NCBI GenBank assembly: GCA_045603085.1
Contig: JAZULL010000132.1
Location: 10,575 to 74,574 of the forward strand
DNA: 64,000 bases
Reading direction: 5' to 3'
Source: Eubacteriales bacterium
GTDB taxonomy: Bacteria > Bacillota > Clostridia > Oscillospirales > CAG-272
Shown in pieces: positions 15,493-37,943 of the stretch. Within the stretch, counting starts at the first letter, position 1. Each line of letters begins with the position of its first letter. The notes under the pieces were generated by a model. That model searched no databases. It saw only the letters and a program-made list of their open reading frames with translations, and was not told the DNA's origin. A program made the position numbers and the translations under genes.

Positions 15493-18400
15493 TTAACCCT
15501 CGACCTGCACCTGCTCGATGACCGTGATGATGCAAAGGCCGTCGGAATCCGAGGCGGGAACCAGCGCGAACACAACGTCCACAATCTGTCCCGCATAGGC
15601 AGACAGATCGGCAGAGACGCCCGAGGGCCTGCCCTCTGCGCCTTGGAAGACGATCTTATCGGGATTTTCCATAACGTCATAACCCGAAGCGGCAAAGAAA
15701 TTATCGGCCGCTGCGGCAATGCCCTGCCCTGCAACCAAGCCACCGAATGCGGCGGTGTTATAAAGCGAGCATTCCTGCCACGTCTTGCCGCCGTCGGCAG
15801 ACCACATATATTTGTCTATACCGCCCTCGGCGACCGCCCAGCCTGCAATGGCCAGCACGCTGCCGTCCACAGTTGTGCCACAATACTCGATCTTATCCAG
15901 CGGACTATCCGAGGCGGTGCCGCGCGAATCATACGCGCCGTTACCGTCACCCGTGCCGTTGATAAAATCGATTCTACCCATGTAGCGTACGTCGGACACG
16001 TTCCAGCCCGAGGAGAAGTCCACGTAATCGTAAACGGTATCTGCCGCACCGCCGGGATTGGCGGTCATACCGGTGGAGAAATCCAGCGCGTTGACCACGT
16101 TGCCGCCCTCGTAAAGCTCGCCCTTGCCGCTACCGTTGTGGCGGCAGATATCGGTCAGGCTGTTTGCAATGCCCACGTAGGCGATATCCACGTAGCAATC
16201 GGCGCTCATGGGGGTGTTGAAGACGTCAAAGCGGAGATACTGAGGCGCATAGTTGCCGTTGGCATCCGCTCCGAAGGTGGGCAGGCTTTGCGCGGACATA
16301 TCCACGATCAGCACGTGCCACTCGCCGTCCCGCAAAAGCTCTCTTGCATAGAAGCTTGCACCTGCCTGCGCACCGGAATGCTCGGTGCTGGAGAAGAATT
16401 CAAACTCAAATGTATCGGTATTGGCCTTGGGAATGCGATATTTGACCACAAGATACTGTCCGACCGAGGTAGAGGCAGACGCCTTGTATGCATCAAAGAA
16501 GGCTTCACCTGCGCCGTCACCGCTGCCAAAAATGCGGATATACGCGCCATCCTCCTGCACGCCCGTCTGACCAAAGCCCTTGCCTGCGGCAATGCGCTGC
16601 TGCAGCTCGGCGGGGGTGACCAGAACGTCCAGCGCAATCCGGCTTGCGGAATTGTCGCCCTCCTCCCAACCGGCAAAATCGGTATCGGCCACGATCTTGA
16701 AGGTGCGGCTCTGCGCGCCGTCCATATCGAAAGCAAATGCGTAGGAATACGTTCCGTCGCGGTCATAATACACGGTGTAGCCATCGTATGCATGCGCATT
16801 GCCCTTGAGGTCGGGGGTATTCTTGGAGCTGACCTCGTATCTGACCCACTCGCCATCGATCTTTTCATAGATGACGGGTGCGGTCAGCTTATCAAAGCCG
16901 TAAACGCGAACCACCTTATTGTTGGAAGAACCTGACACGGTAAACTCGACACTCTTGCCGTTGGTGGTACGGATCTTGGGCATATACGTGCAGGAGATCA
17001 GCTCACCGTCCGCTACAGTAGCCTGCAGGCGGTCAAGGCAGGTGTTCTTGCGGATCTTTTGCATATTGCCGTCATCGGTGGAGTCATAGAAGCCCCAAGG
17101 CGAGATGATCATGCATAGCTTGATGGTGTCCCCTGCCTTGAGCGTGACGTTGCCAAGATCCAACGACAGGCTGTACTTGGAATTCTGTCCCACCACGACA
17201 AAGCCGGCATCACTCGTCTTGCCGCCGATATTGATCTCGGAATCATAGATCACAAAGCCGATATTGACGTTATTATTGACAAAGGAGTCTGCAGTCGTTG
17301 CCAGATCGTACAGCGCTACGTAGGGGCACTGATCACCCAGCTTGATGACCTCGGGAGTGGCAGAGGCATTGACCTTGCCGCTCACGGGCTTGTTATTCTC
17401 GCCAAGATAGCCGATCTTTGTATAAGTGCCTGCATAGCCCTCAAACGAATAGAACGAGAAATCCTTGGCAAAATCCGCAACCGTGACGTCCTCAAGAATT
17501 TCATAATTGATCTCGTAGTAGGCGCGAAGCTCATCGGTCTCGGGCAGCTCTACGTGGTTGTAAGAAACCTTGATACGGCCGTCGTCCGAAATATAGTCCA
17601 TTTTGACGTCGGTGTATACGGGACCCGAGGAATCTATGTCGTTGTGATAGTTCTCGGTTGCAGAATATTTACCGTTTGCATCGGTGTACTGCAGGAAATA
17701 CTGGAAGCCGCCGTGCGTGTGCTGGGGCTGATTTCCGTATCCCGCGCCCTCGGGCAGCTCAAACCAATACGGCATGGACATGGAACGGAAGTCGGGCAGC
17801 GTCCACAGATCACGTGCGCCGTACCAAGGGGAGATACAGCTGGTTTCGGTCGTACCCAGCGAGAGGTGATAATAAGGCCAGAAATACTGGATCGAGGAGA
17901 GCTGCTTGAGCGGCACCTGACCCCAGTTCATGTAAAGGTTGAGCACCGTGACCTTGCAGGTCTCGCCTGCCTTGACGGTCAGTGGGAAATAGGTCTCGCT
18001 GTAGGACGCGTCGCCCGCATCAAAGATCGGCTCTTCGTTCTCGCCCTTGAAATTCTTGCAGATCATGGTGGGAATGGGCAAGAGCATCTGATTTTCATCC
18101 AGAATCAGCGCGTTTTCGCCGCAACCGCCCGTAAAGTAGGTGTAAACGTAGATATTTCGGTCGCTACCGTCGCCCTTGAAGGATACGTCGCAGGAATAAT
18201 GTCTGTTCTGCTCGGTAAAGAAGGGCTCGTTAAAGCCCGAGCCGCCGATCTCAAACTTGTATGCACCGCGCAGGGCATCATAGCCGAGATAGGTATCGCC
18301 ACCGACAGCCTCCAAGGGGTGTCTTTCGGCCTCTGCCGCAGCCACAAATGCGTCAAAGCTGTGGTTTTCATCAGTATAGAGGCGGTGACCCATGTAAAAA

Positions 18401-19746
18401 TCATTGACAGGGGTCTGAGAGTTGGGGGTCAGTTTGCCACCTTCGGGGCAGGAGGTCTGGGTGACGGTATAGACGCCGTCAGAGAGCGTTACCTCCAGCT
18501 TGCCGCTGGTCTCATGCGCCGGCAGGATATAGCCGAACACACCCGCATCCTTAATATCAAAGCCGACGTATTCGCAAGTGGACCAATCCACGCCGTCAAG
18601 CGAGTCGTGCGTGCCCTTTGCATCCTTGACGATCAGAGAGCTGACCGTGTCGGCAGCGATCTCGGTCACCATACCCAAGGTCTCGATGCCGCTTACCGGT
18701 GCGGTAGCAACAAAATGAAGCACCTGATTGAGCTTATCCGAATAGGTATGGAATGTTCTGTCCAGCAAAACGGCAGGAGCATCCGAGCTGACCTTGACGC
18801 CCTTGATATCCTTGATCTCAACCGTCTCACCCGACGTACCGATATCGAAGCGGAAGCCGGTGACCTTGCCTGTATAGTCGGTCACGCCGTCCAGCATCAC
18901 CGTATACGTCTGCCATTCGCCGTTAGCCGACATGCTGAATTTGACCTGCTGATCGGCATTATGAGAGGAGTACGAGCCTGCCACAAGGTACAGCTGTCCC
19001 TCGGTGGAATTGGTGCATTTGACCGAGAACTGCAATGCATTGTATTCGGTAGCCTCAAAGCTCAGTCGGGAGTTGTTTTTATCCGCAAGCAGATATACGT
19101 ATGGATCCATGCCACCTGCTACGTAGGAGATCAGACCGTCGGCAGTCGTAGTCAGACCTTCCACGTCGTTGCCACGCACGTTGCTCTTTTTATAAGAAAG
19201 CTCATGCGTTGCGCTGATCTGCGCGCCACCCATAAAATTCTGATCAAGCAGATGGATATCATAATAATAGTAGCCTAAGCGATAAATATTGGCGCGCGCC
19301 GAGGCAGTAGTATCGGAAGCATAGTAAACCTTTCCATCCTCCATTTTGATAAACGCGTCCATGGTATTTTGCAAGTAAGCATTCCCCGATGCACTTTTGA
19401 TCGCACCTACCTTGGGGCCTTGCGCGGCAGACAGCACGTAATCAAGGCTCATGTTGCCGTTGATGATGCGATATCCCGTGCGCGCGGCATCGGAATAATA
19501 CGCCTGCACCGCGCCCGCCTGCCGGTTGGCATACATGATGGAATCGGCATACGGTCCCTCGATCACGGGCTCAACCCATTCGGGATCCTGACCGGGATTT
19601 TGTTCTGTTCCCTGTTCGGTCCCATCCGTGGTATCGGTGGGATCCTTTTCGGGGTCCTGATTTCTGTTGCGGCAGGACGACAGGCCGCCGCCAACAAGCA
19701 ACAGCGACATGCAAAGTCCAAGCGTAAGGATGCGGGTGTACTTCAT
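15493..19746 (-). CDS. very large secreted lipoprotein, unknown function (one Asp-box/BNR-like motif near C-terminus)
   Basis: I trimmed the start to MKYTRILTLGLCMSLLLVGGGLSSC, a signal peptide plus lipobox (LSSC). The protein is 1417 aa. SADGGKTW matches the SxDxGxTW Asp-box. Confidence 0.75.
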   Translation of the reverse strand: MKYTRILTLGLCMSLLLVGGGLSSCRNRNQDPEKDPTDTTDGTEQGTEQNPGQDPEWVEPVIEGPYADSIMYANRQAGAVQAYYSDAARTGYRIINGNMSLDYVLSAAQGPKVGAIKSASGNAYLQNTMDAFIKMEDGKVYYASDTTASARANIYRLGYYYYDIHLLDQNFMGGAQISATHELSYKKSNVRGNDVEGLTTTADGLISYVAGGMDPYVYLLADKNNSRLSFEATEYNALQFSVKCTNSTEGQLYLVAGSYSSHNADQQVKFSMSANGEWQTYTVMLDGVTDYTGKVTGFRFDIGTSGETVEIKDIKGVKVSSDAPAVLLDRTFHTYSDKLNQVLHFVATAPVSGIETLGMVTEIAADTVSSLIVKDAKGTHDSLDGVDWSTCEYVGFDIKDAGVFGYILPAHETSGKLEVTLSDGVYTVTQTSCPEGGKLTPNSQTPVNDFYMGHRLYTDENHSFDAFVAAAEAERHPLEAVGGDTYLGYDALRGAYKFEIGGSGFNEPFFTEQNRHYSCDVSFKGDGSDRNIYVYTYFTGGCGENALILDENQMLLPIPTMICKNFKGENEEPIFDAGDASYSETYFPLTVKAGETCKVTVLNLYMNWGQVPLKQLSSIQYFWPYYHLSLGTTETSCISPWYGARDLWTLPDFRSMSMPYWFELPEGAGYGNQPQHTHGGFQYFLQYTDANGKYSATENYHNDIDSSGPVYTDVKMDYISDDGRIKVSYNHVELPETDELRAYYEINYEILEDVTVADFAKDFSFYSFEGYAGTYTKIGYLGENNKPVSGKVNASATPEVIKLGDQCPYVALYDLATTADSFVNNNVNIGFVIYDSEINIGGKTSDAGFVVVGQNSKYSLSLDLGNVTLKAGDTIKLCMIISPWGFYDSTDDGNMQKIRKNTCLDRLQATVADGELISCTYMPKIRTTNGKSVEFTVSGSSNNKVVRVYGFDKLTAPVIYEKIDGEWVRYEVSSKNTPDLKGNAHAYDGYTVYYDRDGTYSYAFAFDMDGAQSRTFKIVADTDFAGWEEGDNSASRIALDVLVTPAELQQRIAAGKGFGQTGVQEDGAYIRIFGSGDGAGEAFFDAYKASASTSVGQYLVVKYRIPKANTDTFEFEFFSSTEHSGAQAGASFYARELLRDGEWHVLIVDMSAQSLPTFGADANGNYAPQYLRFDVFNTPMSADCYVDIAYVGIANSLTDICRHNGSGKGELYEGGNVVNALDFSTGMTANPGGAADTVYDYVDFSSGWNVSDVRYMGRIDFINGTGDGNGAYDSRGTASDSPLDKIEYCGTTVDGSVLAIAGWAVAEGGIDKYMWSADGGKTWQECSLYNTAAFGGLVAGQGIAAAADNFFAASGYDVMENPDKIVFQGAEGRPSGVSADLSAYAGQIVDVVFALVPASDSDGLCIITVIEQVQVEG

Positions 19747-19894
19747 AATGGTATCCCCTTTCATAAAAATCAATGTGTTACCTATATTTTACATGATACC
19801 GCATATAAATGTCAATCGGTTATGAGGATTTCGTGCAATATCGGCGTTTTTACCAATCCCTTTTGATGCTTGGTTTTATTTCACTATGGCACTT

Positions 19895-21056: not shown

Positions 21057-21085
21057 TTGCCATTGATTGCAGGTTGTATTATAAT
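21057..21085 (+). promoter_or_regulatory. near-consensus sigma-70 promoter
   Basis: TTGCCA-17 nt-TATAAT. Confidence 0.6.
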
Positions 21086-21090
21086 TAGTA

Positions 21091-21155
21091 GCCGTACGGG
21101 AGTCGAACCGAATTGCCCGACGGCGATGAATTTTCGCACCTTTTGGCGCGCTTTT
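21091..21155 (+). promoter_or_regulatory. structured leader: long hairpin followed by a small terminator-like hairpin
   Basis: The first hairpin is GCCGTaCGGG...CCCGACGGC (21091-21124). It is followed by CGCACC-tttt-GGCGCG plus CTTTT (21135-21155), about 60 nt before the RBS GGAGG. Confidence 0.4.
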
Positions 21156-21215
21156 ACTCGCAAGATAGTACGGAAATATGATTATCAAATTGCAAGTACA
21201 ACATGGAGGTGGATT

Positions 21216-21509
21216 ATGGCTGTAATGAAAAGTAGCGACGGAAACGATCTGATGCTGGACTGTCGCTGTGGATGCTGCAGCGGACTGAGATTCAAGATCG
21301 ATAAGTATTCTGATGACGGTTATGGATTAATCACCTATACCAGCGGAAACTTCTACACAGAGCAGGATCATACAGTCTGGGCTGTATGGAAAAAGAAGAT
21401 CAGGAAGATCTGGCGGATTCTCCGAGGCAAGGACTATTGCTATAGCGAGGTATTGCTGAGCAAGTGCGAGATGGAGGAATTCAAGGAGTATCTGCTGAGT
21501 CTGGAGTGA
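21216..21509 (+). CDS. small hypothetical protein (97 aa, CxCxCC motif)
   Basis: GGAGGTGGATT-ATG start. The protein reads MAVMKSSDGNDLMLDCRCGCCSGLRF.... I recognise no family. Confidence 0.55.
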   Translation: MAVMKSSDGNDLMLDCRCGCCSGLRFKIDKYSDDGYGLITYTSGNFYTEQDHTVWAVWKKKIRKIWRILRGKDYCYSEVLLSKCEMEEFKEYLLSLE

Positions 21510-21542
21510 TTGGACAACGGCAAAAAATACCGCTTCGTTTTT

Positions 21543-21746
21543 GGCGTGATACTCTTAACGGTGTATCACGCCAGTTCTATTCGCCTGTGGCGAGTGATAT
21601 TGCTGACGCAGTTATATTCGGCATATGCCGAGTGGTATTCGCTTCGCGAGTTTCAGGGCGAATGGAATATCACTGAAGCCGCAAGGCTTCAATATCACTA
21701 TTGCGCAAGCAATAATATCACTCTTTGCGAGAGCAAAGAATATCAC
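21543..21746 (+). repeat. array of short hairpins joined by conserved (A)ATATCAC linkers
   Basis: ATATCAC occurs at 21667, 21692, 21715 and 21740, a 23-25 nt period. Between copies lie TGAAGCC-GCAA-GGCTTCA, TATTGC-GCAA-GCAATA and TCTTTGC-GAGA-GCAAAGA. Upstream are ATTCGC...GCGAAT, CGGCATATGCCG and GGCGTGATAC...GTATCACGCC. The inverted copy GTGATAT is at 21594. Confidence 0.8.
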
Positions 21747-21753
21747 TAAAAAA

Positions 21754-21810
21754 CAGAGAAGAGAGAGTTCACGAAATTTTGTAACCGTGTTACTCTCTCT
21801 TCTGCTTTTA
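21754..21810 (+). terminator. intrinsic terminator with large loop
   Basis: CAGAGAAGAGAGAG...CTCTCTCTTCTG followed by CTTTTATT. Confidence 0.65.
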
Positions 21811-22080
21811 TTGCCAGTTTCGCATTTGTTTAACAAACGCATCGGGCGATTCCCATACCCTTATTTTATTTCTCCGATAAGGACAACAGCCATTATACGA
21901 AGCGGTATTTTTATATTCTGACCGTTGCCATTCCGTCCTCTGCATAGGCGATACGGTTGCCGCGCGCATTCAGCGCATCCACGTATGCAAGATATGCCTC
22001 CTTGGAGTCAAAGAGCGGCTTGAATAATCTTTTCCATATCCACACCAACCTTATTTATAGTATGCATTGCATTCTCTTGA

Positions 22081-23703: not shown

Positions 23704-26700
23704 TTACACCTTTTTCTTACGGATGACCAACAAATAGACCGCTACACCGCCACCGATCAGTGCTGCCGCAACGATCGCTACGATCCAGACCCACGTGTAG
23801 CTTGCGGGAGTGGGATCATTCGGATCATCGGGTACCGTATCGGGAGCAGTATCGGGTTCCGTGTCGGCGCCCGTATCGGTAGTATCGGTATCCTTCTCCA
23901 ATACGTCTTTGCAAGCACATACACCTTCGACCCAGTCATGCTCTACCGTCAGGATATAGCTTACGCTTGCCTCTAAATACTCGTCGGTCTGTGCCGCCGT
24001 GACGGTAATGGTGACCTGCCCTGCCTTGTGCGCGGTGATCCTGCCTGTCGCAGCATCTACAGACGCGATAGTGGGATCACTGCTGCTGTACGTTACAGCA
24101 CCCTTTGCACTGACCGGGCGAGCATCCAGCACCTGCGTGCAGGTTGCCTTGCGTTCTGATAGGTCGATCTCGATGGTCTGCTCCTGCTTTTCGGGAATGT
24201 CCGGAGCCTTTGCCTTGACCGTCAGCACATAGTACGCGCTGGTCTGCCCATACTCACCGATCGCTTCGACCACAGCGGCGACGGTAGTTGTTCCGGCGCC
24301 GATGATGGTGACCTTGCCGTTCTGATCAACCGTAGCCACGCTCTCATCCGAGCTGTGGTAAGTGATCCGGCTGCCCTCTACCGCGCCAGAAACAGTCATG
24401 GTAAAGTCCTCATCGCCTTCGGTCTTTTCTACCGAGGTGCTTTCAAAGGCAATGCTCTGCAGCTTCACATCCTCACCTACGCCTACGATCACGCCTGCGT
24501 TCAAGGACTCCACACTTGCCGATATCATCGCGTGCGCATTCTCATCAATGCCTGTTACAACGCCTCTTTGATCAACGCTTACGTTGCCCGAGATGCTTGT
24601 TACAGACCAAATAATGCGGTTTGCCATATAACTATCGGGATTGACGGTTATCATCTTTCCCTTACTCATCAATGCCATCGTCAACTGCTTACCCTCATGT
24701 TCCTCGGTCAGCTGCGAAATTGGCTGTCCGTCAAGCAGTATGATCGCACGCAGACCATCCTTTCCAAGAAGCTCGTTGGTCAACGTCAGGCTGATCTCGC
24801 GGCTCTCGTTGCCAAGGAAATTGGTTGCCTTGACAGTGATAGACTGATATGCTGCAGAGATATCCATATCCAGCGTAACCGTGAAGCTGCCGTTGGTGTC
24901 TGCGACAACCTTGACAGGCTCGCCTTCAAGCGTAACGGTGATCTGTGCATTCGGATCAGTGATACCGCTTACACATATCTGCTCGCCAAAGAAGCTGCCG
25001 TTGCCCGGAGAGGACAGCATCAGCACGGGAGAGGTTGCACGAACCGTAAAGGTATAGATGCAATCAAAGGCATCGCCCTGCGCATCCTCACCGCGAAGCA
25101 CCAGCTTGTGTCCGCCTTCGCTCAAACCTTCCAAGTAAATGGAATCTCCCTCAAATGCGATCCAATCATCCTCGCTTGTATTGAGATCGCCGCCGTCATC
25201 CAGCATATACTTGAGATTTTTCAGTGTTTCATCGCTTGTAATTTGAATAGTCACGTCACTCTTGCCTACGTAGTCCGCACCGTCAACGGTCACCTTGCCT
25301 TGTGCTGTCATAGACACGGTGGGTTTCACAGCCTCAAGCATCACAACGCCGTCACTCAGGATCTCCTCGGAGGGCAGATATACACCCTCTTCAACCTCTT
25401 TATAGGTGCGGATGCCTGCCACGTAGGTTTTTCCTGCCATGAGTCCATAAGTGATGGTTTGTGCTTCGAACATGGGCGCATCCGCGCCCTCTTGGGTGTA
25501 AGCATCCACCGTCGAGGTGTACTGACCGCCCAAGGTCAGCGTGGTCTGCCCCTTATCCATGAGCACGTCGCTGTACACGGTGGGAGCCAGGCTTCCATCC
25601 TCGCCAAGCTCGTATACCGTCACCAGATATCCGTCAAAATCGCCTGCAGGAGCGGTAACGGCTACGTCAACGGTGTAATCACCGCCAAGTGCGATCCCGT
25701 TCAAGGTGGGCTTTTCGGGCGTGTTGGGATTTTCGTATGCAAAGTTTTCAAGGGAGACAATGGGATTGGAGGTCATGTCGGCGGTTGAGCCTACCGCTGT
25801 GACGGTATAGCTTCCGCTCGGCATATTCTCCGGGTACACAAGGGTCACATTCCGGTTTGCCGCGCCCTCGTAGATCACGTATCTGCTGCCATCCTCGGCA
25901 ATCGCATAGATCACAAGACCGTCAAGTCCGGAAACGTCACCCACAAGCTCAGCCTCCGTGCCGTTGACGCTGATGCTGTCAAGGCCGGGCAGACGGGGCA
26001 TGCCGTATACGGTCGCATCAGAGATCAAAGTGGTCGTAACGGAAATCTCCTTATCAAAGCAATCCGCATCGGTCACAGTAAAGGAGATATACGCAGTTTG
26101 GGACTGCTCGTCGTAAGTAATTCTCGCGTTTGCGTCTGCATTGTCGGGGTGGTCAAGTGCCTTGGAGTCATCCACCCACACTAAGGGGTAGGATTCTCCA
26201 TCGCACACGACAGCAAAGCCTTCCTTTGCTTGCTGCATAGAGGATGCATAAATGCTGACGCTGATCAGCGCGTCCTCCTGCCCTGCCAGAGCGCCGTCAA
26301 GGGTAAAGGTATGCTGTGTCTGTGCTTCGTTGGTTGTGATAGCGGTATCACTCAAGCCGTTCTCGCTAGCCGCAAGCGACATGTAAAGCGTTCTGCCTGT
26401 GGCTGCATCTGTAGCCACGGCGCTGCGAAGTCTTGCATAAGGGCTGACGGTCGGCTCGGGAGCGTCGTATTTGCCAAGGCCGAACTCCACGTCACCGCCC
26501 CAATAGTAGGTAACGCCTGCGTCAATGCCTATGACGTGTATCGCGCCCCAGACGCGCTCCTGATTCACTCCCAGGTCTGCGCTACCCACGTTGGTATTGC
26601 CAATGGCGGGAATCCAAGCAGGGATCTTGATGCCCGCTGTTACGTAGCCTTCCCAGAAGAAGCCCTCGTCAAGCTCTTGCAGGATCAGAGAGCCGCTTCC

Positions 26701-29700
26701 GTAGATCACGTCCAGAATGCTGACCTGTATGCCTGCAGAGAAGCGAATGGTGGGATACCAATACAGCTCGGCATACAGCTCATCGATCACGTTAATGCCC
26801 GCTACCCCAAGATCCGAGATCGCCGCCGAAAATCCTCTTGCGGACAGCGAAAGCTCACCCGTTGCAGTCAGTGTGCCGAACAGCGCGTACTGACCCTTGA
26901 ACATAATGGTCAGCGGAGGCAGGATGGACGCGGTGAAAATGGTTTCGTAGATCTTATCCACGCCGCCACCCAGTCCGCGTATCCAAAAGATACCCATGCC
27001 GTCCACGTTGATGCCGGGGGTTACGCCACCCATAAAGAAGTAAAGCTTATCCGGAACGGGGATGCCGTTGTGGGAGCGAAGTCCAAACTCGCCCTCCATT
27101 TCGAAAATGATGAAGTCTGCCGCGCCCTTGACGTTCATCGCCCATTCCTCGCCCATGACCTTCATGTTCAGATGGCCTTCAAGCGAGGGCATGCCCTGGG
27201 TGTAGGCGGGAATGCCGATATCGACCGATGCATTAAAGCCGATAAAGCCGCCGCCAAAGAGAATGTCGTGCAGAGCGATCGAAAGCGCACCGTTTTTGTT
27301 GGCCTTCATCTTTTGGATATCCGCGCGGTTGCGCTCATTGACGTCACGGATCTCCTTGGCTACGTAGGGTCTGCCTGCCAGGCGGTTCTGCTCCTGATGG
27401 TAATCCCACTTAGCCTCCACACCCTTGTCGTAAGCAAAAGTGCTGGGAACCAGGAAATCGGGGCTGACCTCTGCCGAGAAGGCGATAACAAACTTGGACG
27501 CTCCCTCATTCTTTTCGCTCTCGTAGAACATTCTGCCAAACTCCGCATAGCGGAATTCCATGACCATGCCTGCCAGAGTCTGTGCGCCCGAAGCCGCTCC
27601 GGGCCAGCAAAGCATGATTGTATCCATATTTGCTTCACTGGTTTCCACCTTATCGTTAACATGCTTACCGATCTGATTGTACTTGGCGAGTATGGTGTCG
27701 TTTCCAATCGCAGTCAGGGCGCAAACACCGTCCCAGACCTTGCTTCTGGCACCCGTGGTATAGACCTCGCCGTCAATATCCACAAGGATCTCCTGATCTG
27801 CCGTGCCGATCTGCTCGATGCTGATCTCAAGCGTGCCGTTATCAACGTCCAGGCAGTTGCTGATATTGATCGAGTCGCCCCCTTGGATCGCAGTTGCCTT
27901 GGCAGCGATCACGGTTTTGTTGTCTGCTGCCATGGTAATGCTGAAGTCACCTCTGAATTCCATCAGGACGCTGTCCATCTTGTCCCCTGCCGAAAATTCC
28001 AGCGCATAGTCCTCTTCGCTCTCATAAGCGTACAGGATATATTTGTTGTCAGAATCGCTTTCCGAATCGTAATAGGGGTTTTGTTCGATGGTGACGATGC
28101 CGTAAACGGTATTCTTGAAGCTTGCGTTGTTGCTGACCGAGAAACGAAGCGCATCGCTTGTCGTGTCAAGCTTTGTTGCATCCTTCCAGTCAAATACGAC
28201 CTGTCTTGTTCCCGTGTCAAGATACTCGGAGATAACGATCTCTGCAGTATTATTCTCAGTATCGATGAAAACTCTCTCGGGAGGGATCTTGACGTCGGGT
28301 CTGCCGTCAGTCGAGCGCAGAAGTACGTCATACGTGCTCTTGTCGCGCAGATAAGAGAAGTTTGCACCCGAAAGATACAGACTGCGCGTGCCCGTGTAAT
28401 AGATGACGTTGGGCGTAATGCTGTTAAAGGAGAGAGAGGTGCCCGAGCCGCCCGGGCAAAGCACGTAGGAATCGCGCTCACCGATCACCTTTTCCTGCAG
28501 CAGATGGAGGTTGGTGCCATCGATATCAAAAATGCGGACACCGATCTTGCGGTATTCGGTATTGGTGTGAGGCGTTGCGGCAAAATTGACCGTGACCATT
28601 CTCTCTTCGCCCGGAATCAGATCGATGACACGAACGTAATAGGGGTCCGCCGCTGTTGCGGTTGAATTCTGAACACCCGTGAGATCATAGGAAACCAATC
28701 CTTCCTCGGGATACAGCGCGATGGCAATATCTTCAAGCGTCTCGGAGGAGATATTGGTAATTCTGAGATGCATGGCAAACGTGCCGGGCGCACCTGCGTT
28801 CTGAATGCGTACGTAGCCATCAGCGTCCGCATTGAGTTCAAGCGCCGCGGGCATCTCGAAATTGATCGCTACCTTTTCCTCTTCGCTGATATTGACATTG
28901 GAGTAGATACCGTAATACGTACCGATCGCAGTTCCCTTTCCGCCTTCGGGCGCTGTTCCCATATCGAAATACAGCGCATAAGCACTGTCGGCGGTCAGAT
29001 ACTCGTTCTGGCTGTTGGTAAAATAGACGTCCCCGGGAGTGAAATCGAAAACAGTGGATGCCAGATTGTTCCAATGTCCGAACGCGACGCGTGTGGGCTG
29101 ACAAGGCTGGTCGTTGACCGTTGCGTTGACGGTATATGCCGTCACAGAGGGCGAATATTCGTTGTCCCAAGCATAAAACGAGCTTGCGTAGGCAGAGCCC
29201 TCAAGCAGCTGCTCGCTCTCCACCGTGAGGTATTCTCCGTCAGGCTGGGTCAGCTCGTACAGGGCGTAATCCTGATAGCCAAGCGCCGTGTCCATCATGA
29301 CTCTGGCCTGGATCTGAGCGTCCTCTTTCGCGTTCTCAACCTCGTAGGTGATAAACACCATGCCGTGCTGATTTGCTGTCGTATCGAGCAGGGTCAGCGT
29401 TTGAATAAAGGTCAGTCCGTCCACGCTCCACTTGGCAACGATGCTGTTGTTTACCTTTTCTATTTCCACGTCGGAGGAAGCAAGACCCAAAAATCCGTAA
29501 TTTCTACCGAAGATATAGTCCTTGCTCTCACCGTTGCGCGTGACGCGGAACGAGGTATAGGAGGTGTCAAAATCATCGTCGGGATAGAGCAAAAATTTAT
29601 TGTCGTCCGACTTTTTGAGTTGGTCTCCTTCAACCGTATCGATCAGAAAGCCGCCGTTCTTAGCAGAGACCTTGACCGACAGATAGCCGTCGCTCAAAGC

Positions 29701-29808
29701 AAGATAATCAGGTTGGTCATCATCGGCAGCAAAGATGCTCAAGGGCAAAGCCCCCAGCAGCATTGCTACTGTCATAACGACGGCAAGCAAACGGGTAATG
29801 TTTTTCAT
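23704..29808 (-). CDS. giant membrane-anchored surface protein (2034 aa) with C-terminal Big_2-like Ig domains
   Basis: Signal peptide MKNITRLLAVVMTVAMLLGALPLSIFA. There are two Big_2-like segments (ITYHSSDESVATVDQNGKVTIIGAGTTTV and VTYSSSDPTIASVDAATGRITAHKAGQVTITVTA). The C-terminus has a TM helix plus RKKKV. Confidence 0.85.
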   Translation of the reverse strand: MKNITRLLAVVMTVAMLLGALPLSIFAADDDQPDYLALSDGYLSVKVSAKNGGFLIDTVEGDQLKKSDDNKFLLYPDDDFDTSYTSFRVTRNGESKDYIFGRNYGFLGLASSDVEIEKVNNSIVAKWSVDGLTFIQTLTLLDTTANQHGMVFITYEVENAKEDAQIQARVMMDTALGYQDYALYELTQPDGEYLTVESEQLLEGSAYASSFYAWDNEYSPSVTAYTVNATVNDQPCQPTRVAFGHWNNLASTVFDFTPGDVYFTNSQNEYLTADSAYALYFDMGTAPEGGKGTAIGTYYGIYSNVNISEEEKVAINFEMPAALELNADADGYVRIQNAGAPGTFAMHLRITNISSETLEDIAIALYPEEGLVSYDLTGVQNSTATAADPYYVRVIDLIPGEERMVTVNFAATPHTNTEYRKIGVRIFDIDGTNLHLLQEKVIGERDSYVLCPGGSGTSLSFNSITPNVIYYTGTRSLYLSGANFSYLRDKSTYDVLLRSTDGRPDVKIPPERVFIDTENNTAEIVISEYLDTGTRQVVFDWKDATKLDTTSDALRFSVSNNASFKNTVYGIVTIEQNPYYDSESDSDNKYILYAYESEEDYALEFSAGDKMDSVLMEFRGDFSITMAADNKTVIAAKATAIQGGDSINISNCLDVDNGTLEISIEQIGTADQEILVDIDGEVYTTGARSKVWDGVCALTAIGNDTILAKYNQIGKHVNDKVETSEANMDTIMLCWPGAASGAQTLAGMVMEFRYAEFGRMFYESEKNEGASKFVIAFSAEVSPDFLVPSTFAYDKGVEAKWDYHQEQNRLAGRPYVAKEIRDVNERNRADIQKMKANKNGALSIALHDILFGGGFIGFNASVDIGIPAYTQGMPSLEGHLNMKVMGEEWAMNVKGAADFIIFEMEGEFGLRSHNGIPVPDKLYFFMGGVTPGINVDGMGIFWIRGLGGGVDKIYETIFTASILPPLTIMFKGQYALFGTLTATGELSLSARGFSAAISDLGVAGINVIDELYAELYWYPTIRFSAGIQVSILDVIYGSGSLILQELDEGFFWEGYVTAGIKIPAWIPAIGNTNVGSADLGVNQERVWGAIHVIGIDAGVTYYWGGDVEFGLGKYDAPEPTVSPYARLRSAVATDAATGRTLYMSLAASENGLSDTAITTNEAQTQHTFTLDGALAGQEDALISVSIYASSMQQAKEGFAVVCDGESYPLVWVDDSKALDHPDNADANARITYDEQSQTAYISFTVTDADCFDKEISVTTTLISDATVYGMPRLPGLDSISVNGTEAELVGDVSGLDGLVIYAIAEDGSRYVIYEGAANRNVTLVYPENMPSGSYTVTAVGSTADMTSNPIVSLENFAYENPNTPEKPTLNGIALGGDYTVDVAVTAPAGDFDGYLVTVYELGEDGSLAPTVYSDVLMDKGQTTLTLGGQYTSTVDAYTQEGADAPMFEAQTITYGLMAGKTYVAGIRTYKEVEEGVYLPSEEILSDGVVMLEAVKPTVSMTAQGKVTVDGADYVGKSDVTIQITSDETLKNLKYMLDDGGDLNTSEDDWIAFEGDSIYLEGLSEGGHKLVLRGEDAQGDAFDCIYTFTVRATSPVLMLSSPGNGSFFGEQICVSGITDPNAQITVTLEGEPVKVVADTNGSFTVTLDMDISAAYQSITVKATNFLGNESREISLTLTNELLGKDGLRAIILLDGQPISQLTEEHEGKQLTMALMSKGKMITVNPDSYMANRIIWSVTSISGNVSVDQRGVVTGIDENAHAMISASVESLNAGVIVGVGEDVKLQSIAFESTSVEKTEGDEDFTMTVSGAVEGSRITYHSSDESVATVDQNGKVTIIGAGTTTVAAVVEAIGEYGQTSAYYVLTVKAKAPDIPEKQEQTIEIDLSERKATCTQVLDARPVSAKGAVTYSSSDPTIASVDAATGRITAHKAGQVTITVTAAQTDEYLEASVSYILTVEHDWVEGVCACKDVLEKDTDTTDTGADTEPDTAPDTVPDDPNDPTPASYTWVWIVAIVAAALIGGGVAVYLLVIRKKKV

Positions 29809-29992: not shown

Positions 29993-32900
29993 TTATTTTA
30001 TATAGATGGTAATGCGGTATTGGTCGTGGCTTTGGGTGGTGATGAGGATGGTGTAGTATCCGCTCTGTCCCGCAAAGGGCAAAAGGATCTCGTCATCCAC
30101 CAATTCAAGCTCGGTGGCGTGTGTCTTCATCTGCGCTGCGGTTCTGATGCCGCTCAACCACGTAAGCTCGTAGGGTTCTCCTTGCATATCCACTCTCAGA
30201 TTGAGCGCGTCTTGGCTTTCTGCAAGGTAAATGCTCTCGCGCTCAACAACATTGCCATCAATGGCAACGCCGGGCAGGACGGTTTGGTAAACCTGCAGCA
30301 TACCCGTTATCTCGGATTTGTTGCCTGCTGCATCCGTTGCAGTATAGGTCACGGGATAAGCTCCCGCTTCGGTGGGTATTTCATACGCCACATGAACCTG
30401 TACGTTACCGTCTCTGTCATCGACTGCCGCGCAGTTGGCGAGAATGCGCGCTTCCAGATCCGAAAGATCCAGCATGGATGCGTAAACCGTGTACATTACA
30501 AGCTGCATTTTGGGGGCAACCTGATCGGGATAATCAATACTTGTAAACACTGCACCGCTGACGTTGCCGTAAGCATCTCTTGCATAGATCGAGCCGCCGC
30601 TCTTGTCGCCAACCGCCAATCCAAGCCACTCATGCGCATCAACAGCGTAGCTTTCACCGTTGAAGCTGACGGTAGCCGCTCTGTCAACGCTGACGTAGAA
30701 GATGTCGCCGATAGCAACCTCTCCCAGCGCATCGGGTGTGGCAACTGCCTCGCTGCCGTCGGCATTTTTGCTGAAACTGAACGTGGGCGCGGTATCTACG
30801 ATGCCCGTGATATTTACCGTGACCGTTGCAGCGTTGCCTGCAGCGTCAACAAATACGTATTCGTAAGCACCGTTTTGGTCAAACGTACGGGTAAATGCGG
30901 TGCTGACACTGCTGCTTTCTCTGAAGCTGACCTTCTCATCCGAGGTCAAGCTGACGGTGGCTTTTCTTCCGTCTGTGCTGTAAACGGGATCACTGACCGT
31001 GATCTCGGGCGCATCCCTGTCAATATTGGTCACCGCGCCAAGCGTGATCACTTCGCTCCACTTTCCGTTTATACCACGGAAAAGCAGCTCCAGGTCACGG
31101 TAATTGTCGCTGTAACGCACCGTGACCGTGTTGCCTACCGCCTTGACCGTGACGCTGTCGGGAAGCTCCGCGGCACCAAGGGTGGTCTGCACCAGATCAA
31201 TGGGCTTGCTGAAGGTCAGCGTCACCGTCACCTCACCTCTGGTGGAAGTGCCCGCCTGTACCGACCACCGTCGGCTCAGCAGAATGGGTGCGTCGTTATC
31301 AACCTCGATGATCTCGATCTTCAATTGCTCGTCAACCGGCTCGCCCTGATACAGGTAAGAGTAGCTGATGGTGTAAATGCCGTTTTTGGTAAAGATCGCC
31401 TCGGTGGCAGGCACACCGTCCACCGCCGTGATGCGCAGGTCGGTGCCATCCGCAGGGACGGTCAGATCGACTCTGATCGCATGATCGTCGCCTACCGTAG
31501 CAGGCATCTTGGTATAGGTAGGTACGGGTGCGTTACCGACGTTGTAAAGGTTCATTCTAAAGGCTGTCACGTTCCCCATTTCATCTATGACGAAGATGGT
31601 AAACTGCGCAGGTCCCGTCACCTCAAGCGTATTTCCGAGAAGCGACACGTTTTCAACCACGTCGCTGCTTGCCGTGTAATAGCTTTCGGGGGCTGACGCG
31701 TATAAGCCGTTTTTGATGATGATACGCGTCTTGTTGAGGTCCTGCACCTCGATATTGAATCGGTATCTGCTTGCCCAGCCCAGTGCCTCGGCAAATTCCG
31801 CAGCGTCGGTATAGGCGGCATAGCCCTCGTAGGGCAAGAGCGAGGGATTGAGCAGGTCGATGTAATTCTCATCTCCGCTCTGCATTCTCTGTTCAAGATC
31901 CTCGTAAACCAGATAGCTTTCTCTGGGAACTGCCTCTTGATTTCTCATGGCGTACGGAACGATCTGTACGCTGGGAGCTCTTGTATCGATCTCGATCATG
32001 GGAGGAGGCGGAAGCTCTTTCAGCTCGACCTCCAGCGCGATGGTAAATGCACCGAGATCGCAGTATCCGTCCTCCCCCGAAAGCGCATCGATACGCAAAG
32101 TCGGGAAGGTATACTCCGTTACACCGCTTCCGTATACGAAGGTGTACGTGGGAGCCTTGCCGGTCATGGGGTCGATGATATCCCAGTTGCCGTTTTTGTC
32201 GTAAACGTAAGCGATCACGTCGCCGTACACGTAATCCTCGGGGTTCTCCCCGTAGTCCCAGCGAACTGCCAGGTCAGCAGGATGGATATTGTCGATCTCA
32301 AGATAGTAGCCCATATAAGCATCGCTTACGTCGGGCGTGAGATCCCAGTAAATCTCCACGCTGGTCGACGCCTTGAAGATCACCGTGACCGTGCTCGTAC
32401 CACTTCCCTCGATGATCACGTCATCTCCGCCACCGCTGACCCACACGGAGTCGTAAGCTGCACCGTCGGGGACTGTGACCGTAACCGTTACGGGCTGTGT
32501 CGTCTTCTCGGTGTTATCGATCTGCACGATGGGAGACTGGAACTTTGCAAAGTGGGTGGTGGTCACCGTTACGGTCTGGGTCAGACCAAAGCGGTCGGTC
32601 ACCGTGATTTGGTGATCTCCGTCCTGGAAGATGTTAAGCTTATGGTTGAAGTTGGCAGAAGTACCGCCCTGTACGTAGACCGAGGTGTTCCAGTTCAGAC
32701 GCAATCCGTCGTAGTCATCCAGCCAATACGGCTCGGGAACGGGATCCTCGTAAGTTCTGTCGGGATGTGTAACCTCAAGAACGTTGGAGCGAAGCTCTCT
32801 GCCCGTGTTTGCATCATACAGCACCAGCTGTGCCCAGACCGACTCGACGCGGTCACCAATCTGATGATTGATTCCGTCCGCCAAGGGATTTATCATCTCG

Positions 32901-35900
32901 ATCTCTACCTGATTCCCACCGCTCGTGCTGATCATTCCCATAGAATAACCAACCGCGTTGGTTCCCGAATAGTAGCCTTCGAGATAGAAGCGCTCGATCT
33001 CGTTACCGTAAGCGTCGGTAAAGATCACGTAGCTGACGCTCCGGTCAACGTACACGCCGTTAGAAATCGAAGCATACATATCAAGGGTACCGTTGCCAAT
33101 GTTGTAGCAGGGGCCGATTTGGAATTCACCCTTGAATTCCACTTGCTTGTCGGTAAGACGGTACTTGGGCTGATACCCCTCTACTACAGGCTGCGCATAC
33201 GCATCCTCGGTGGGAGCGAATTGCGGGAACACCAGCACGCAGGCACCGCTGTCGGTGATGATCATAAAGGCTCCGTTTGCTGCCTCCATGTTATTTCCCA
33301 TTTTATAGGTGACACATTCGTCAGTACCGCCATCCGCGCTCGTCATATAGGTGCGGGAGTCATCACCCTTGAGTCTGATGATCGCATCCGGCTCAACCGA
33401 ATAAAGATTGTAATAATACACCGACGACTGATAATAGAGTCTGTGTCTGGTATCGGAAACCTGATTGCCGTTTGCATCGTAACAGTACCCGTAGCTGGCG
33501 TTATACATCACGAAATCTCTGTACGTCCACTGTGGGTAATATCCGCTGTTGAGATCGTTCAACGTATTGCTTCGCGTATATTTGTACTCTTGATATTGTT
33601 CGACAAGGCTACCGTCATCCCCCTCGGTGTAGGTCAAAAGCCCCATGGCATCCTTGGTCAGATAATAAGTACCCACGATACCTGCCGACGTAAACACATT
33701 CTGAAGACTGATATCTGCACCGGCTATATTGATGGGCTCTCCTTCGGCAGAAAGGTTGAGCTTTTCCTCCAAAACGTCGGTATCAAGCCCTGCGGAAGGG
33801 GTTTCGGTGTTGGCGTAAACCGTGAACTGCTCCACGGGGCTCTCAAGGCCGTTTTCCATGACGACCTGATAGCAGATGACGTTGTTTCCGTCGGTAAGAC
33901 CGATCAGCCGGGCCATGGTGTAAATACCATCGGCGTTCTTATTCAGCGTACTCTTTCCGATGCCCGTGATCTCATCGTAGGTCCAGGTGTCGTGATCGAT
34001 CGCGTTTTCACTGTGGAAGGTGAACACGTAGCCGTCTGTGGTAACCAGCCCCTGCTCGCGGCTTTGGTGGATCGCGGGATTCCAGACGTATATCGCCGCA
34101 ATCTTACCCACCGTAAATCCCTGTAAAGTCTGCTCGGCGGATTCTGCCGTGACAGAAAAGCCGAAGTTTAATACGCCGCCCACCTCGTTGGTGTAGGTGC
34201 CCGTACGAATTGTTTCGCTCTGCCCCGCCATGCTGACGGTCATGTGTTCGATATATCCGTCGGTGGCTGTGTTGCGAATGACAAAGGTTGAGGTGTCATA
34301 CAGGTTAAGCGCTGAATTGACCGACTGTCCTTCAGCCAGATAGGGCTTTCCGTTCTCGTCAAATCGGATCAGCGACGGCATACTGCTGTGGCTGGAGATC
34401 GGAATATTGGGTGTGATATAGGTTTCGGTGACACCCGCCCGAACTACGGTATTATCAAGTACAAGCCGTTCGGCTGCCGTGACGGTCATGACCTGACCGT
34501 CCTTCATTGCCACCGTGACCTGCACCGTATATACTCCGGTTGACAGCTCGACCCGCGGTATGGTCAGGCGTTGCAGCACCGCCATGCTCCAAGGGATAGT
34601 AATAACAGGCTGTCCAAGGCTGCCATCCGCGTTGACCTTTACGATGCTGACAAAGGTATCGTTCTCATCCACGTCACGCACGCCAAGCTCGGGCCAATAC
34701 GTATTCTGCAAGGTCAGGTCGAAGCTGACTCCGGCAAGCGTCTGATAGAACATTTTGTTCCCCTCAAAGCTCTCTCCCTGCGCATCGGCAAAATTGAAAA
34801 ATTCCACCTCGAATACGTTCTGTATATCACAGCTGACAAGGAAAACGATCTCGTCCTCTGCCTGAATGTAAGAGCCGTCTGTCACCTGTGCGCTCAGCAA
34901 GCCGTTTTGCGGAATCAGAACATTGTCTGCAACGGTTGCATTGTCGTCATACGCAAGGTCAAACGTCACGCGTACGTCACCGTACCAACCAGCAAGCAGG
35001 TCGTCAAACGACTGCATGGTGAGTGTGCTGACACTTGTAAAGGTAGCGTTGTCATTCTCGTCCGTTCCCATCACGACTCTGTATACGTCGCGGCTCGAAA
35101 TGCCCGACTGTGTCAGGGGGAAGACGTCGATGCTCTGCGCTGCTTCAAGATCTGCGGAGCTGAGAATGAAAACGTAGGTGTAGGAATACGCATCGTCCTT
35201 CCCCTCGGGAGATACGAAGCTGACAAACGCGCGCAAGTATCCGTCCTTGTCTGCCGACAAGCCCTGCGCTACCGAAAGATTGAGCGAAGGTTCTTTTGTG
35301 GGGACGGCGGGATCTCCCTTGAGATTTGCCGAGTAATTGGGCTTATCCAGCAGAACTTGGACGGTTTTCGAAGCCATCTCGCTCTTGTTTCCGCTCTTAT
35401 CCACCGCGTACACCCAAAGCGTAAGCGTGGTATCGGTTTCGCTGTCAAATGCGGGATATCCTTCCTCGGGCAGCAACCATGCAAAGCCCTCTGCCTGCTT
35501 GCCTGCGCTCATCCAGCCTGCGCTATAATCGGCAGGCTTGGTCTCTCTCCACTGATAATAGGTGGTAATGCCATCGTCCCCGCTGAAGTCGGATGCCGAC
35601 CATTGTGCCGTTACGTACGCGCCCGTGTTGGTGTAGTGTACCGATGCCGAAAGGTCACTGACCTTCGGAGGCGTCTCGTCATAAGTGTAGCCCGGCTCGA
35701 CTCTCGAAGCATCCGTCGTATTTCTGTTTCCTGCCCAGTCGGGAAGGCTGTATTCCACCTTAAGCTCATCTACGGTAATAGAGCTTGCTTCTCCAACGAG
35801 CTTGATGTGGATATATCTCGTGCCGCTGTAGAGCGGAATGGTCTGCCATGAAACCTCATTCGCCCTGAATGCGCCCGAATAAGTATAGGCGCTGTCATCC

Positions 35901-37606: not shown

Positions 37607-37631
37607 AGTGGGTTTCCTTTCATTATGTAAA

Positions 37632-37943
37632 TCATGCTGTCGTCTTTCTGTTCTGCTCACACATGCAAATGCCAATCAGGTCGTCGCCGTGGCAATAATG
37701 TGCGCAATCCACACAACAGCCCTCTATGAAGCGACTGGTACCGTATCGGCACAGCTCCTGCATCTGTGTTACGAAGGGGCGACCGTCGTCTGTGTACAGA
37801 GGGTTTAACTTGAAATCGGGATAAATGGGTATCGGAGCGCCTTGGGCTCTTTCAAATTCCTCGTAGTACCCGTACCGCAATTCGAATTGCTTTCCAAACA
37901 CCGTCAACATCTTAAAAACGTCGCCGTCTCTTATCTGATTCAT
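37632..37943 (-). CDS. small Cys/His-rich protein (103 aa), first gene of the giant-protein operon
   Basis: GGAGA RBS. The C-terminus reads CRYGTSRFIEGCCVDCAHYCHGDDLIGICMC. The stop is 25 nt before the 2537-aa gene. Confidence 0.6.
   Translation of the reverse strand: MNQIRDGDVFKMLTVFGKQFELRYGYYEEFERAQGAPIPIYPDFKLNPLYTDDGRPFVTQMQELCRYGTSRFIEGCCVDCAHYCHGDDLIGICMCEQNRKTTA

Follow-up and report, generated by a model that had tools for sequence, protein, structure and literature searches.

A Gut-1 homolog very probably carried by a mobile insertion into a transcription terminator of a gut Clostridia contig

Introduction

Why would consecutive hairpins have entirely different stem sequences and still share their loop type and the linker that separates them? 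The question is raised by a 64,000-nucleotide stretch of a Eubacteriales bacterium contig (JAZULL010000132.1, positions 10,575 to 74,574; assembly GCA_045603085.1), hereafter the window, whose positions are counted from its first letter. An initial annotation, made from the sequence without database searches, described there an array of three hairpins, each followed by an ATATCAC heptamer, and placed it between a gene for a 97-amino-acid protein and an intrinsic terminator. We conclude that this array very probably belongs to a homolog of Gut-1 (RF01706) lying within a mobile insertion into a terminator. More specifically, we assign a probability of about 60% to the array being one arm ("arm 2") of a two-armed Gut-1-type element, itself the core of a non-coding mobile element of ~350 bp that resembles a miniature inverted-repeat transposable element (MITE).

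Gut-1 was described from human gut sequence by Weinberg et al. in 2010 as probably an RNA and rated "certainly RNA"; that description contains no function, mobility, inverted end repeats or terminator-loop context (PMC2864571), and our literature search on Gut-1 function or on elements targeting terminator loops found nothing beyond it. The link between Gut-1 and mobility, the terminator loop as a target, the two-arm design with its enclosing long-range helix and the modular ends all appear to be new.

Results

The array lies in an insertion that splits a terminator

Two metagenome contigs from other samples (L132 and L133) encode the identical 97-aa protein and have no insert: its stop codon is followed by a plain, intact terminator (AAAAAAATACCGCTTTG-CTTTTATA-CGAAGCGGTATTTTTT), in which nothing but a short loop separates the two halves, and then by the downstream sequence of the window. 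A blastn comparison of the window with L132 gave flanks of 98–99% identity that break off at 21542 and 21893 and overlap by 2 nt, TT. These breakpoints thus put the 350 bp from 21543 to 21892 in the terminator loop of the 97-aa gene; the two terminator halves now stand on either side (Table 1). The insertion site is polymorphic between samples with an identical 97-aa gene. The initial annotation had considered the array probably transcribed, as a 3' untranslated region or a separate RNA. That it is a locus-specific 3' untranslated region device of the 97-aa gene has to be abandoned, since homologs of the protein occur without the array and two samples with the identical protein have the intact terminator. 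Likewise, the intrinsic terminator that it had placed after the array is a component of the inserted element (hairpin B). An association of the array with the 97-aa protein was likewise rejected, homologs being found elsewhere with no array downstream. The promoter-like TTGCCA-17-TATAAT noted upstream is indeed present, at 21057-21085.

Two convergent hairpin arrays with modular ends

Arm 2 corresponds closely to the array first described. Its hairpins TGAAGCC-GCAA-GGCTTCA, TATTGC-GCAA-GCAATA and TCTTTGC-GAGA-GCAAAGA have fully complementary stems, different sequences and the reported loops, and an ATATCAC follows each of them, with four copies in all at 21666-21746. The AATATCAC linkers start at 21666, 21691, 21714 and 21739 on the + strand, so that heptamers recur every 23–25 bp with the hairpins in between; the single – strand match is at 21594. 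Over the whole window, the AATATCAC octamer has 9 matches against 2.4 expected, and the pattern ATATCAC-N14-22-ATATCAC has three, all in the array, against none in 100 shuffles. For 21540-21815, the z-score of the fold is –9.5 when the + strand is folded and –10.1 for the – strand.

Upstream, the GTGATAT at 21594, previously read as a free partner for any linker, actually belongs to an inverted array, arm 1, whose four linkers are GTTCTAT at 21574, GTGATAT at 21594, GTTATAT at 21611 and GTGGTAT at 21632. The two arms therefore form convergent arrays, in which the heptamers are direct repeats along each arm and have opposite orientations in the two arms. A predicted long-range helix, P1, encloses arm 1 and competes with its first hairpin, hp1 (21581-21593).

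On the left, the hairpin noted earlier as GGCGTGATAC...GTATCACGCC was located at 21543-21572. It is hairpin A, whose left boundary is common to the copies of the subfamily and whose 5' strand and loop constitute the left repeat. The reverse complement of the right end, TGGCTGTTGTCCTTATCGG, aligns with the left end, TGGCGTGATACTCTTAACGG, and the right boundary is shared with L232, a copy 92.8% identical over 376 nt that sits in an unrelated terminator loop. Hairpin B is part of the element in the subfamily of the window copy and is conserved in L148, L150, L153, L161, L174 and L232. The tail module M occurs forward in L140, L162, L171, L188 and L222, and inverted in the window copy, L232, L153, L161 and L174.

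Table 1. Coordinates of the insertion, its components and its host site in the window
Feature	Position	Strand	Description
Inserted non-coding element, probably mobile	21543-21892	+	350 bp; TT on both flanks
Hairpin A with left terminal inverted repeat	21543-21572	+	Terminator-like: 10-11 bp stem, then AGTTCTATT
Arm 1	21574-21650	+	Four GTGATAT-type linkers, hairpins hp1-hp4; matches the Gut-1 model on the + strand
Long-range helix P1 (predicted)	21576-21666	+	TCTATTCGCC (21576-21585) pairs with GGCGAATGGA (21657-21666); encloses arm 1
Arm 2	21666-21746	+	Four AATATCAC linkers and three hairpins (21674-21691, 21699-21714, 21722-21739)
Hairpin B	21748-21812		Long GAGAGAG stem, A-run before, T-run after; resembles a bidirectional terminator; no strand assigned
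Tail module M	21813-21859	-	GCCAGTTTC, hairpin GCATTTGT..ACAAACGC, hairpin GGGCGATTCCC, ATACCC
Right terminal inverted repeat	21868-21892	+	ATTTCTCCGATAAGGACAACAGCCA; right boundary common to L232
Gene for 97-aa Cys-rich protein (host of the target terminator, outside the element)	21216-21509	+	Nine homologous clusters, 55-100% identity
Host Rho-independent terminator, 5' half	21523-21537	+	A-tract and stem, AAAAATACCGCTTCG; complementary to 21898-21912
Host terminator, 3' half	21898-21912	+	Stem and T-tract, CGAAGCGGTATTTTT; inverted repeat; empty-site comparison

That the region is non-coding, as first proposed, is supported: open reading frames (ORFs) of 76–98 aa do overlap it, but the indels that distinguish copies of the family have lengths not divisible by three, and their stems show compensatory changes. 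A promoter scan called none within the element of the window. When the – strand is read, the right junction is seen to be spanned by a TATAAT, after which come module M and then hairpin B with a run of six T (21748-21897). The arrangement could encode a small RNA of ~135 nt, and the scan made no call there. Elsewhere in the window, an 18-nt match with two mismatches to the reverse complement of the left end (43821-43838) lies inside a 1209-aa ORF and is probably due to chance.

Both arms match the Gut-1 motif

A scan of Rfam with relaxed thresholds detected Gut-1 twice, with 43.8 bits at 21662-21748 (–) and 34.7 bits at 21572-21643 (+), so that the window copy stays below the gathering score of 50 bits on both arms. 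L232, 93% identical to it, reaches 50.8 bits, and other copies of the family score 52–74, the threshold being passed by arm 1. Both arms contain at least three short hairpins separated by GUGAAAU or GUGAUAU linkers, as in Gut-1, arm 2 reading four GTGATAT on the – strand. By blastn, the element is 80.4% identical over 104 nt (E = 7e-15) to the phage-collection record MT835815.1, which includes a sequence near-identical to the Gut-1 seed BAAZ01025322.1. Moreover, the flanks of the Gut-1 seeds contain a terminator hairpin, GUUAUAUUCGCC..GGCGAG, GUGAUAU-spaced hairpins, a center ending with GCGAAUAUA and AUAUCAC-spaced hairpins (supplementary file of Weinberg et al. 2010, PMC2864571), which is the two-arm layout of the window copy.

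Gut-1 was the sole Rfam match over the element, and ARAGORN found no tRNA in it. Interpretations as CRISPR, integron attC site, tRNA-like structure or riboswitch were rejected, as neither cas genes nor other supporting features were seen. The sole Rfam match above threshold in the window is a pemK RNA motif (RF02913; 70.1 bits, far over its gathering score) at 55500-55566 (–).

A family dispersed among gut Clostridia

Representative genomes were scanned with the pattern TATTCGCC-N55-85-GCGAATNNAATATCAC, which retrieved at least 120 loci. Among the matches listed, all come from metagenome-assembled genomes (MAGs) of mammalian-gut Clostridia, namely Oscillospiraceae, Acutalibacteraceae, Ruminococcus, Faecousia and "Eubacteriales". 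Several MAGs contain more than one copy; the window holds one. All-against-all comparison delineated a core of ~175 nt with sharp boundaries, extending from 5–10 nt before TATTCGCC to after the fourth ATATCAC, and subsets of copies have longer units in common beyond this core. Searches by BLAST gave no match in a plasmid collection and one unannotated record with a non-coding copy in a phage collection.

Twenty-nine complete copies, mostly of 340–375 bp, lie between an A-tract with a stem and the complementary stem with a T-tract. Requiring at least 10 nt of exact complementarity between flanks, split terminators were found at a minimum of 25 of the 89 evaluable copies, against 1–3 of 84–86 in shifted controls. 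The ends are imperfect inverted repeats of ~20–26 bp with subfamily-specific sequence: the left end of a copy aligned to its own right end with a score of 18.5, compared with 11.9 when the ends were shuffled and 13.1 when they came from other subfamilies. The junctions usually have TT on both sides, as in more than 10 copies, with AT or TC in a few, and left flanks otherwise resemble each other in T-richness alone. The family combines several of the features by which MITEs are recognized, being small and non-coding, with inverted ends, dispersed copies and presence/absence polymorphism.

Genes upstream of the element tend to share its orientation (co-directional at 77 loci, opposite at 25), and downstream neighbors have no bias. 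Sixteen genomic copies and the copy in one phage record lie ~40 nt past a tRNA or tmRNA gene and its terminator, and all 17 are co-oriented with it.

The initial annotation had raised the possibility of a high-copy family scattered between genes with neither linker nor loop conserved; the family is indeed scattered and of high copy number, and both the linker and the loop type are conserved.

Several variants deserve mention in their own right. Locus L163 contains a second Gut-1 copy (1560-1960, –; 74 bits) with (G/A)TGAAAT in arm 1 and ATTTCA(C/T) in arm 2. This sister family keeps the whole architecture with the linker pair GTGAAAT/ATTTCAC, and its P1 is formed by the different sequences TTCGTTCC and GGAACGAA. 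In L155, L162, L196 (+ copy), L197, L201 and L235, small insertions are nested in the loop of the second or third hairpin of arm 2, for example TTTCTTTTG[GAAATATCTCGCCACAGGCGAGGTTTTTT]CAAAAGAAA, where the inserted sequence is similar to the first unit of arm 1 in reverse complement; the loops of the element's own hairpins may be targets as well. Another subfamily right end (L141, both copies of L163, L219 and L252) carries a conserved outward promoter, TTGCxCC-17-TATAAT, followed by AAGGCGGTGATTATATG, and supplies a Shine-Dalgarno sequence and an ATG to unrelated small ORFs, some of them seemingly membrane-like.

Viral contigs were also scanned. A search for three GTGATAT motifs returned 120 matches, nearly all of them tandem coding repeats of giant viruses, the real ones being L014 and L044; a stricter pattern of mixed orientation gave two matches, both coding false positives. 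L044 (IMGVR_UViG_3300028832_000052) is a GC-rich phage contig of 37.8 kb with two single-arm arrays of GTGATAT-spaced hairpins at ~3650-4500 (–). Each lies between co-directional genes, one of which encodes, as judged by eye, a Prp-like protease, and one array passes the Gut-1 threshold.

Covariation and the folded strand

RNAalifold, run on 102 distinct copies, predicted the three hairpins of arm 2, hp2 to hp4 of arm 1 and the long-range helix P1, in which TATTCGCC and the bases preceding it pair with GGCGAAT and the bases following it. Double compensatory changes affect 25 of the 37 consensus pairs; the arm 2 stems covary strongly, and hp3 and hp4 covary too. Within P1, one column pair is AU in 42 copies, CG in 28, UA in 28, a wobble in 3 and a mismatch in 1, and 24 of the 29 distinct combinations of the P1 ends are Watson-Crick. 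This compensatory upkeep of the stems and of the long-range helix shows that a single strand folds. It also bears out the original view of a conserved shape over variable stems, here across 102 homologous copies. The local ATTCGC...GCGAAT hairpin proposed at the same time becomes less likely, since GGCGAAT (21657-21663) pairs best with TATTCGCC (21578-21585), a pairing supported by covariation in the family.

The linkers of arm 2 are almost invariant, and those of arm 1 vary with no compensation in arm 2, so that pairing of linker to linker is not supported by covariation. The minimum free energy fold predicts a "ladder", with the linkers of arm 1 paired to those of arm 2. This model is disfavored: GTTATAT, GTGGTAT and GTTCTAT are uncompensated, and the alignment-based fold prefers P1. 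It retains some likelihood because the sister family, with its GTGAAAT/ATTTCAC linkers, does keep the complementarity that such a model would require.

The alignment-based count of wobbles, 25 G-U against 12 A-C, favors folding of the + strand, the one co-oriented with upstream genes. On the ATATCAC strand of arm 2, 93 of the 158 distinct hairpins have G..A loops, 91 of them closed by C-G, compared with 2 on the other strand. Half of all loops are triloops, and only 33 hairpins of arm 2 have canonical GNRA loops. Arm 1 is asymmetric in the other direction (0 to 46), its G..A loops being on the opposite strand. The arm 2 loops counted above are of the C(GNA)G or C(GNNA)G type, a hallmark of stable mini-hairpins in DNA, so that single-stranded DNA accounts for the loop data no less well than RNA does. 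Both RNA and DNA energy parameters favor the + strand for tetraloops, and neither scores triloops.

The host gene and its surroundings

The 97-aa protein is conserved although no Pfam family matches it. Homologs (L124-L131) are encoded directly after holB and PSP1/ricT, near dnaN and gidB, the position occupied by yabA in Bacillus. In the window, the gene stands alone on the + strand among genes of the – strand. Its leader (21089-21168) contains GTAGCCGTACGGGAGTCGAACCGAA, which is similar to the 3' half of a tRNA, and in L132 (1177-1456) an extra segment of 200 bp in that leader ends in an inverted copy of this tRNA-like sequence; the leader forms another hot spot of rearrangement, next to the element.

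Window genes lie almost all on the – strand. Very large ORFs flank the locus on this strand (15493-19773, 1426 aa; 23704-29808, 2034 aa; 29993-37675, 2560 aa), of which at least the first two have N-termini resembling signal peptides and look like surface proteins. At 49928-54002 (–), ~28 kb from the element, three adjacent genes encode recombinases. Two are full large serine recombinases of 547 and 522 aa that combine Resolvase, Recombinase and Zn-ribbon domains, and the third is a 290-aa Recombinase-domain protein. The large serine recombinases are of a type other than IS607 tnpA. The cluster probably marks an integrated mobile element; enzymes of this kind use a 2-bp core for exchange, and no link to the Gut-1 element is shown.

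Discussion

The 350-bp insertion, its inverted ends, its dispersed relatives and its preference for split terminators lead us to interpret the hairpin array as part of the core of a MITE-like element. Which strand folds, whether it does so as RNA or as single-stranded DNA, what kind of enzyme mobilizes the element and what the heptamers do are points that we infer. In the working that we propose, hairpin A and the following AGTTCTATT would replace the terminator that is split, so that the interrupted gene would still end in a hairpin and a U-rich tract, while hairpin B, which has the shape of a bidirectional terminator, would shield the other side in this subfamily. The near-invariant heptamers, set between hairpins with G..A caps and oriented oppositely in the two arms, would offer a repeated landing pad for a mobilizing protein acting in trans. 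This protein would most plausibly be a recombinase that uses a 2-bp core for strand exchange in the manner of serine transposases, or alternatively an enzyme recognizing hairpins in single-stranded DNA.

The heptamers are the most constrained feature of the family, which implies a sequence-specific partner. This constraint, together with a precedent, leads us to favor the landing pad, tentatively, among the roles considered for the heptamer arrays: the ends of IS607 contain several short direct repeats and imperfect inverted repeats that are near the termini rather than at them, and IS607 exchanges over an identical 2-bp dinucleotide (PMC6188088). Among the functions suggested at first, that of a recombination substrate comes nearest; the others, such as a protein sponge, fit less closely. 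A still more ambitious proposal, which we regard as speculative and rather unlikely, is that the family represents a class of structure-seeking mobile DNA that recognizes extruded terminator hairpins, integrates in their loop over a 2-bp core, uses heptamers borne on hairpins as a landing pad and repairs the damage with terminators of its own. To our knowledge, no described insertion sequence (IS) or MITE family combines those features.

A number of observations weigh against the element being mobile in this way. One pair of filled and empty sites was examined directly, and the TT of its junctions, which could be a 2-bp duplication or a crossover dinucleotide, could also be a junction ambiguity and not a crossover core. 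No family of transposases or recombinases is enriched among the 516 ORFs neighboring the at least 120 loci, so the element is presumably non-autonomous, and neither an autonomous copy nor a cognate element with a matching transposase was found among these ORFs or in the plasmid and phage collections; looking without gaps for a right-end repeat farther away, as an autonomous copy should have, gave nothing informative. The right-hand array lies 150–200 bp from the right end and not at it. The arms also differ in what is constrained, arm 1 having conserved stems and degenerate linkers and arm 2 free stems and invariant linkers. In IS607 itself, the end motifs are helically phased 9-bp repeats not separated by hairpins, whereas the heptamers here are 23–25 bp apart with hairpins between them. 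Lastly, many copies consist of the ~175-nt core alone, with neither recognizable end repeats nor a tail, and the core may therefore be selected for something besides mobility. Its maintenance beside tRNA-Gln genes in MAGs of several species, if these loci are assumed to be orthologous, hints at retention by the host.

These last points feed the main rival to the landing pad, a functional RNA, which we hold to be possible but rather doubtful. Transcribed when the upstream gene or tRNA operon is read through, or else from a promoter not seen here, the array would act as RNA and the mobile element would be no more than its vehicle; arm 1 enclosed by P1 and the AAUAUCAC-spaced hairpins would form a platform with several sites for an RNA-binding protein (a sponge) or a block to 3'-end exonucleases. 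The strong compensatory changes, the excess of G-U over A-C on the + strand, the 33 arm 2 hairpins with canonical GNRA loops, the "certainly RNA" rating of 2010 and the phage single-arm arrays lying in sense orientation between genes are all what such an RNA would lead one to expect, as are the co-orientation of all 17 copies adjacent to tRNA or tmRNA genes, the bias of upstream neighbors and the recurrence of core-only copies at tRNA-Gln loci. However, where genes are in tandem the orientation bias is just 25 to 13, and the array is preceded immediately by a terminator-like hairpin and followed here by a bidirectional terminator. With such hairpins on both sides and no evident promoter inside the element, transcription as a protein sponge is unproven. 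The inversion of the arms also means that any one transcript has one arm in the "wrong" sense, with G..A loops on opposite strands, and GNA triloops with a C-G closing pair, not favored in RNA and classic in stable DNA mini-hairpins, make up half of the loops. Protection from exonucleases, for its part, leaves the invariant linkers unexplained.

Other readings of the heptamers seem clearly less probable. They could be operators for a protein binding double-stranded DNA, in an iteron- or centromere-like array serving promoter control or DNA organization. WATCACW is the heptad of the omega repressor of inc18 plasmids, and TATCACT would fit it; the arrangement of sites, as direct repeats along each arm with the two arms mutually inverted, would suit such a protein, and in a subset of copies arm 2 ends ~8 nt upstream of a conserved –35/–10 promoter. 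We nevertheless judge this improbable. The sites are 23–25 bp apart and not contiguous as omega heptads are, the variable palindromes between them are kept by compensatory change, which points to intrastrand pairing and not to duplex recognition, and loop composition depends on the strand; moreover, no regulator gene is associated among the neighboring ORFs, and copies occur at the 3' ends and terminators of unrelated genes. Even less credit can be given to a guide-RNA-like array (TIGR-Tas or IS110 bridge RNA), in which repeats would be protein handles and variable segments would specify targets. The formal layout does match, with a conserved repeat, a variable segment, a loop and a variable segment, all short, TIGR systems exist in gut phages and in Flavonifractor (Oscillospiraceae), Gut-1 arrays occur in phage contigs, and box C, RUGAUGA, resembles the linker GUGAUAU. 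But within a unit the two variable segments show mutual complementarity, which TIGR spacers A and B lack, units recur every 23–25 nt and not every 36, neither a Nop-domain (Tas) gene nor an IS110 gene lies near any copy, and the stem variants are ordinary compensatory substitutions at homologous positions with no spacer-like turnover. The least probable explanation is that the arrays have no function and are decaying selfish repeats whose palindromes are kept by template-switch (quasipalindrome) correction at replication. Palindrome correction can mimic compensatory evolution, and the element is non-coding, dispersed and non-autonomous; it would then be hard to see why linkers of 7–9 nt stay near-invariant in at least 120 copies of many species while stems diverge, why G..A loops are biased 93 to 2, why P1 covaries over ~80 nt, or why the GTGAAAT sister family keeps the architecture.

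Should the interpretation as a mobile element hold, Gut-1, which has been in Rfam since 2010 as a gut small RNA without function, would be the core of an element that inserts in terminator loops, and strong covariation in an "RNA motif" from metagenomes could reflect folded mobile DNA and not a cellular RNA. Replacement terminators and outward promoters could then rewire 3' ends and downstream expression in abundant gut Clostridia. A recombinase that recognizes hairpin loops and not sequence would be of mechanistic, and possibly of biotechnological, interest.

Comparison with known systems

The closest known family is Gut-1, and the closest kind of element is the bacterial MITE or small interspersed repeat. 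With Gut-1, the element shares tandem short hairpins, GUGAAAU/GUGAUAU linkers, a location after a terminator-like hairpin and a distribution restricted to gut metagenomes; the Rfam model, however, spans a single arm and the element has two.

TIGR arrays (PMC12045711) are likewise composed of tandem short repeats and variable segments, with "stem-loop array" variants, and occur in phages and gut metagenomes. They differ by a unit of 36 nt with two non-complementary spacers and by an adjacent Nop-domain Tas gene, whereas the units described here are of 23–25 nt, have halves that pair and are accompanied by no Tas gene.

The REP/BIME/REPIN elements mobilized by RAYT have hairpin units with a short conserved 5' motif, in alternating or inverted arrangement, located between genes near 3' ends, and are thought to act as folded single-stranded DNA. 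Yet within a genome REP stems are conserved, and they come with a GTAG motif; the stems described here differ from unit to unit and from copy to copy, and the conserved motif is GTGATAT/ATATCAC. Furthermore, no RAYT gene was seen near the copies, and REPINs are known neither inside terminator loops nor with separate end repeats. Palindromic elements derived from IS200/IS605 have no inverted ends and insert 3' of a fixed target of 4–5 nt, whereas our element has inverted ends.

IS607 (PMC6188088) is similar in the direct repeats of its ends, the inverted repeats near its termini and the low target specificity. It exchanges strands over a 2-bp dinucleotide identical at the element ends and the target, to which the TT present at most junctions here may correspond. 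It differs in that dinucleotide, which is GG, no tnpA was found near the copies, and a preference for terminator loops has not been described for it.

RUP, a pneumococcal repeat, duplicates TA, while the junction of the present element is TT. Together with BOX and SPRITE, RUP nevertheless belongs to the same general kind: these repeats are small, non-coding, dispersed and modular, have folded transcripts and are enriched at the 3' ends of genes (PMC3049150; review PMC10969869). SPRITE resembles a terminator, with AAAA/TTTT "ends" (PMC3049150), and BOX has a variable number of internal modules. Unlike them, the element described here splits an existing terminator, contains two inverted hairpin arrays with invariant heptamer linkers and has no known matching insertion sequence.

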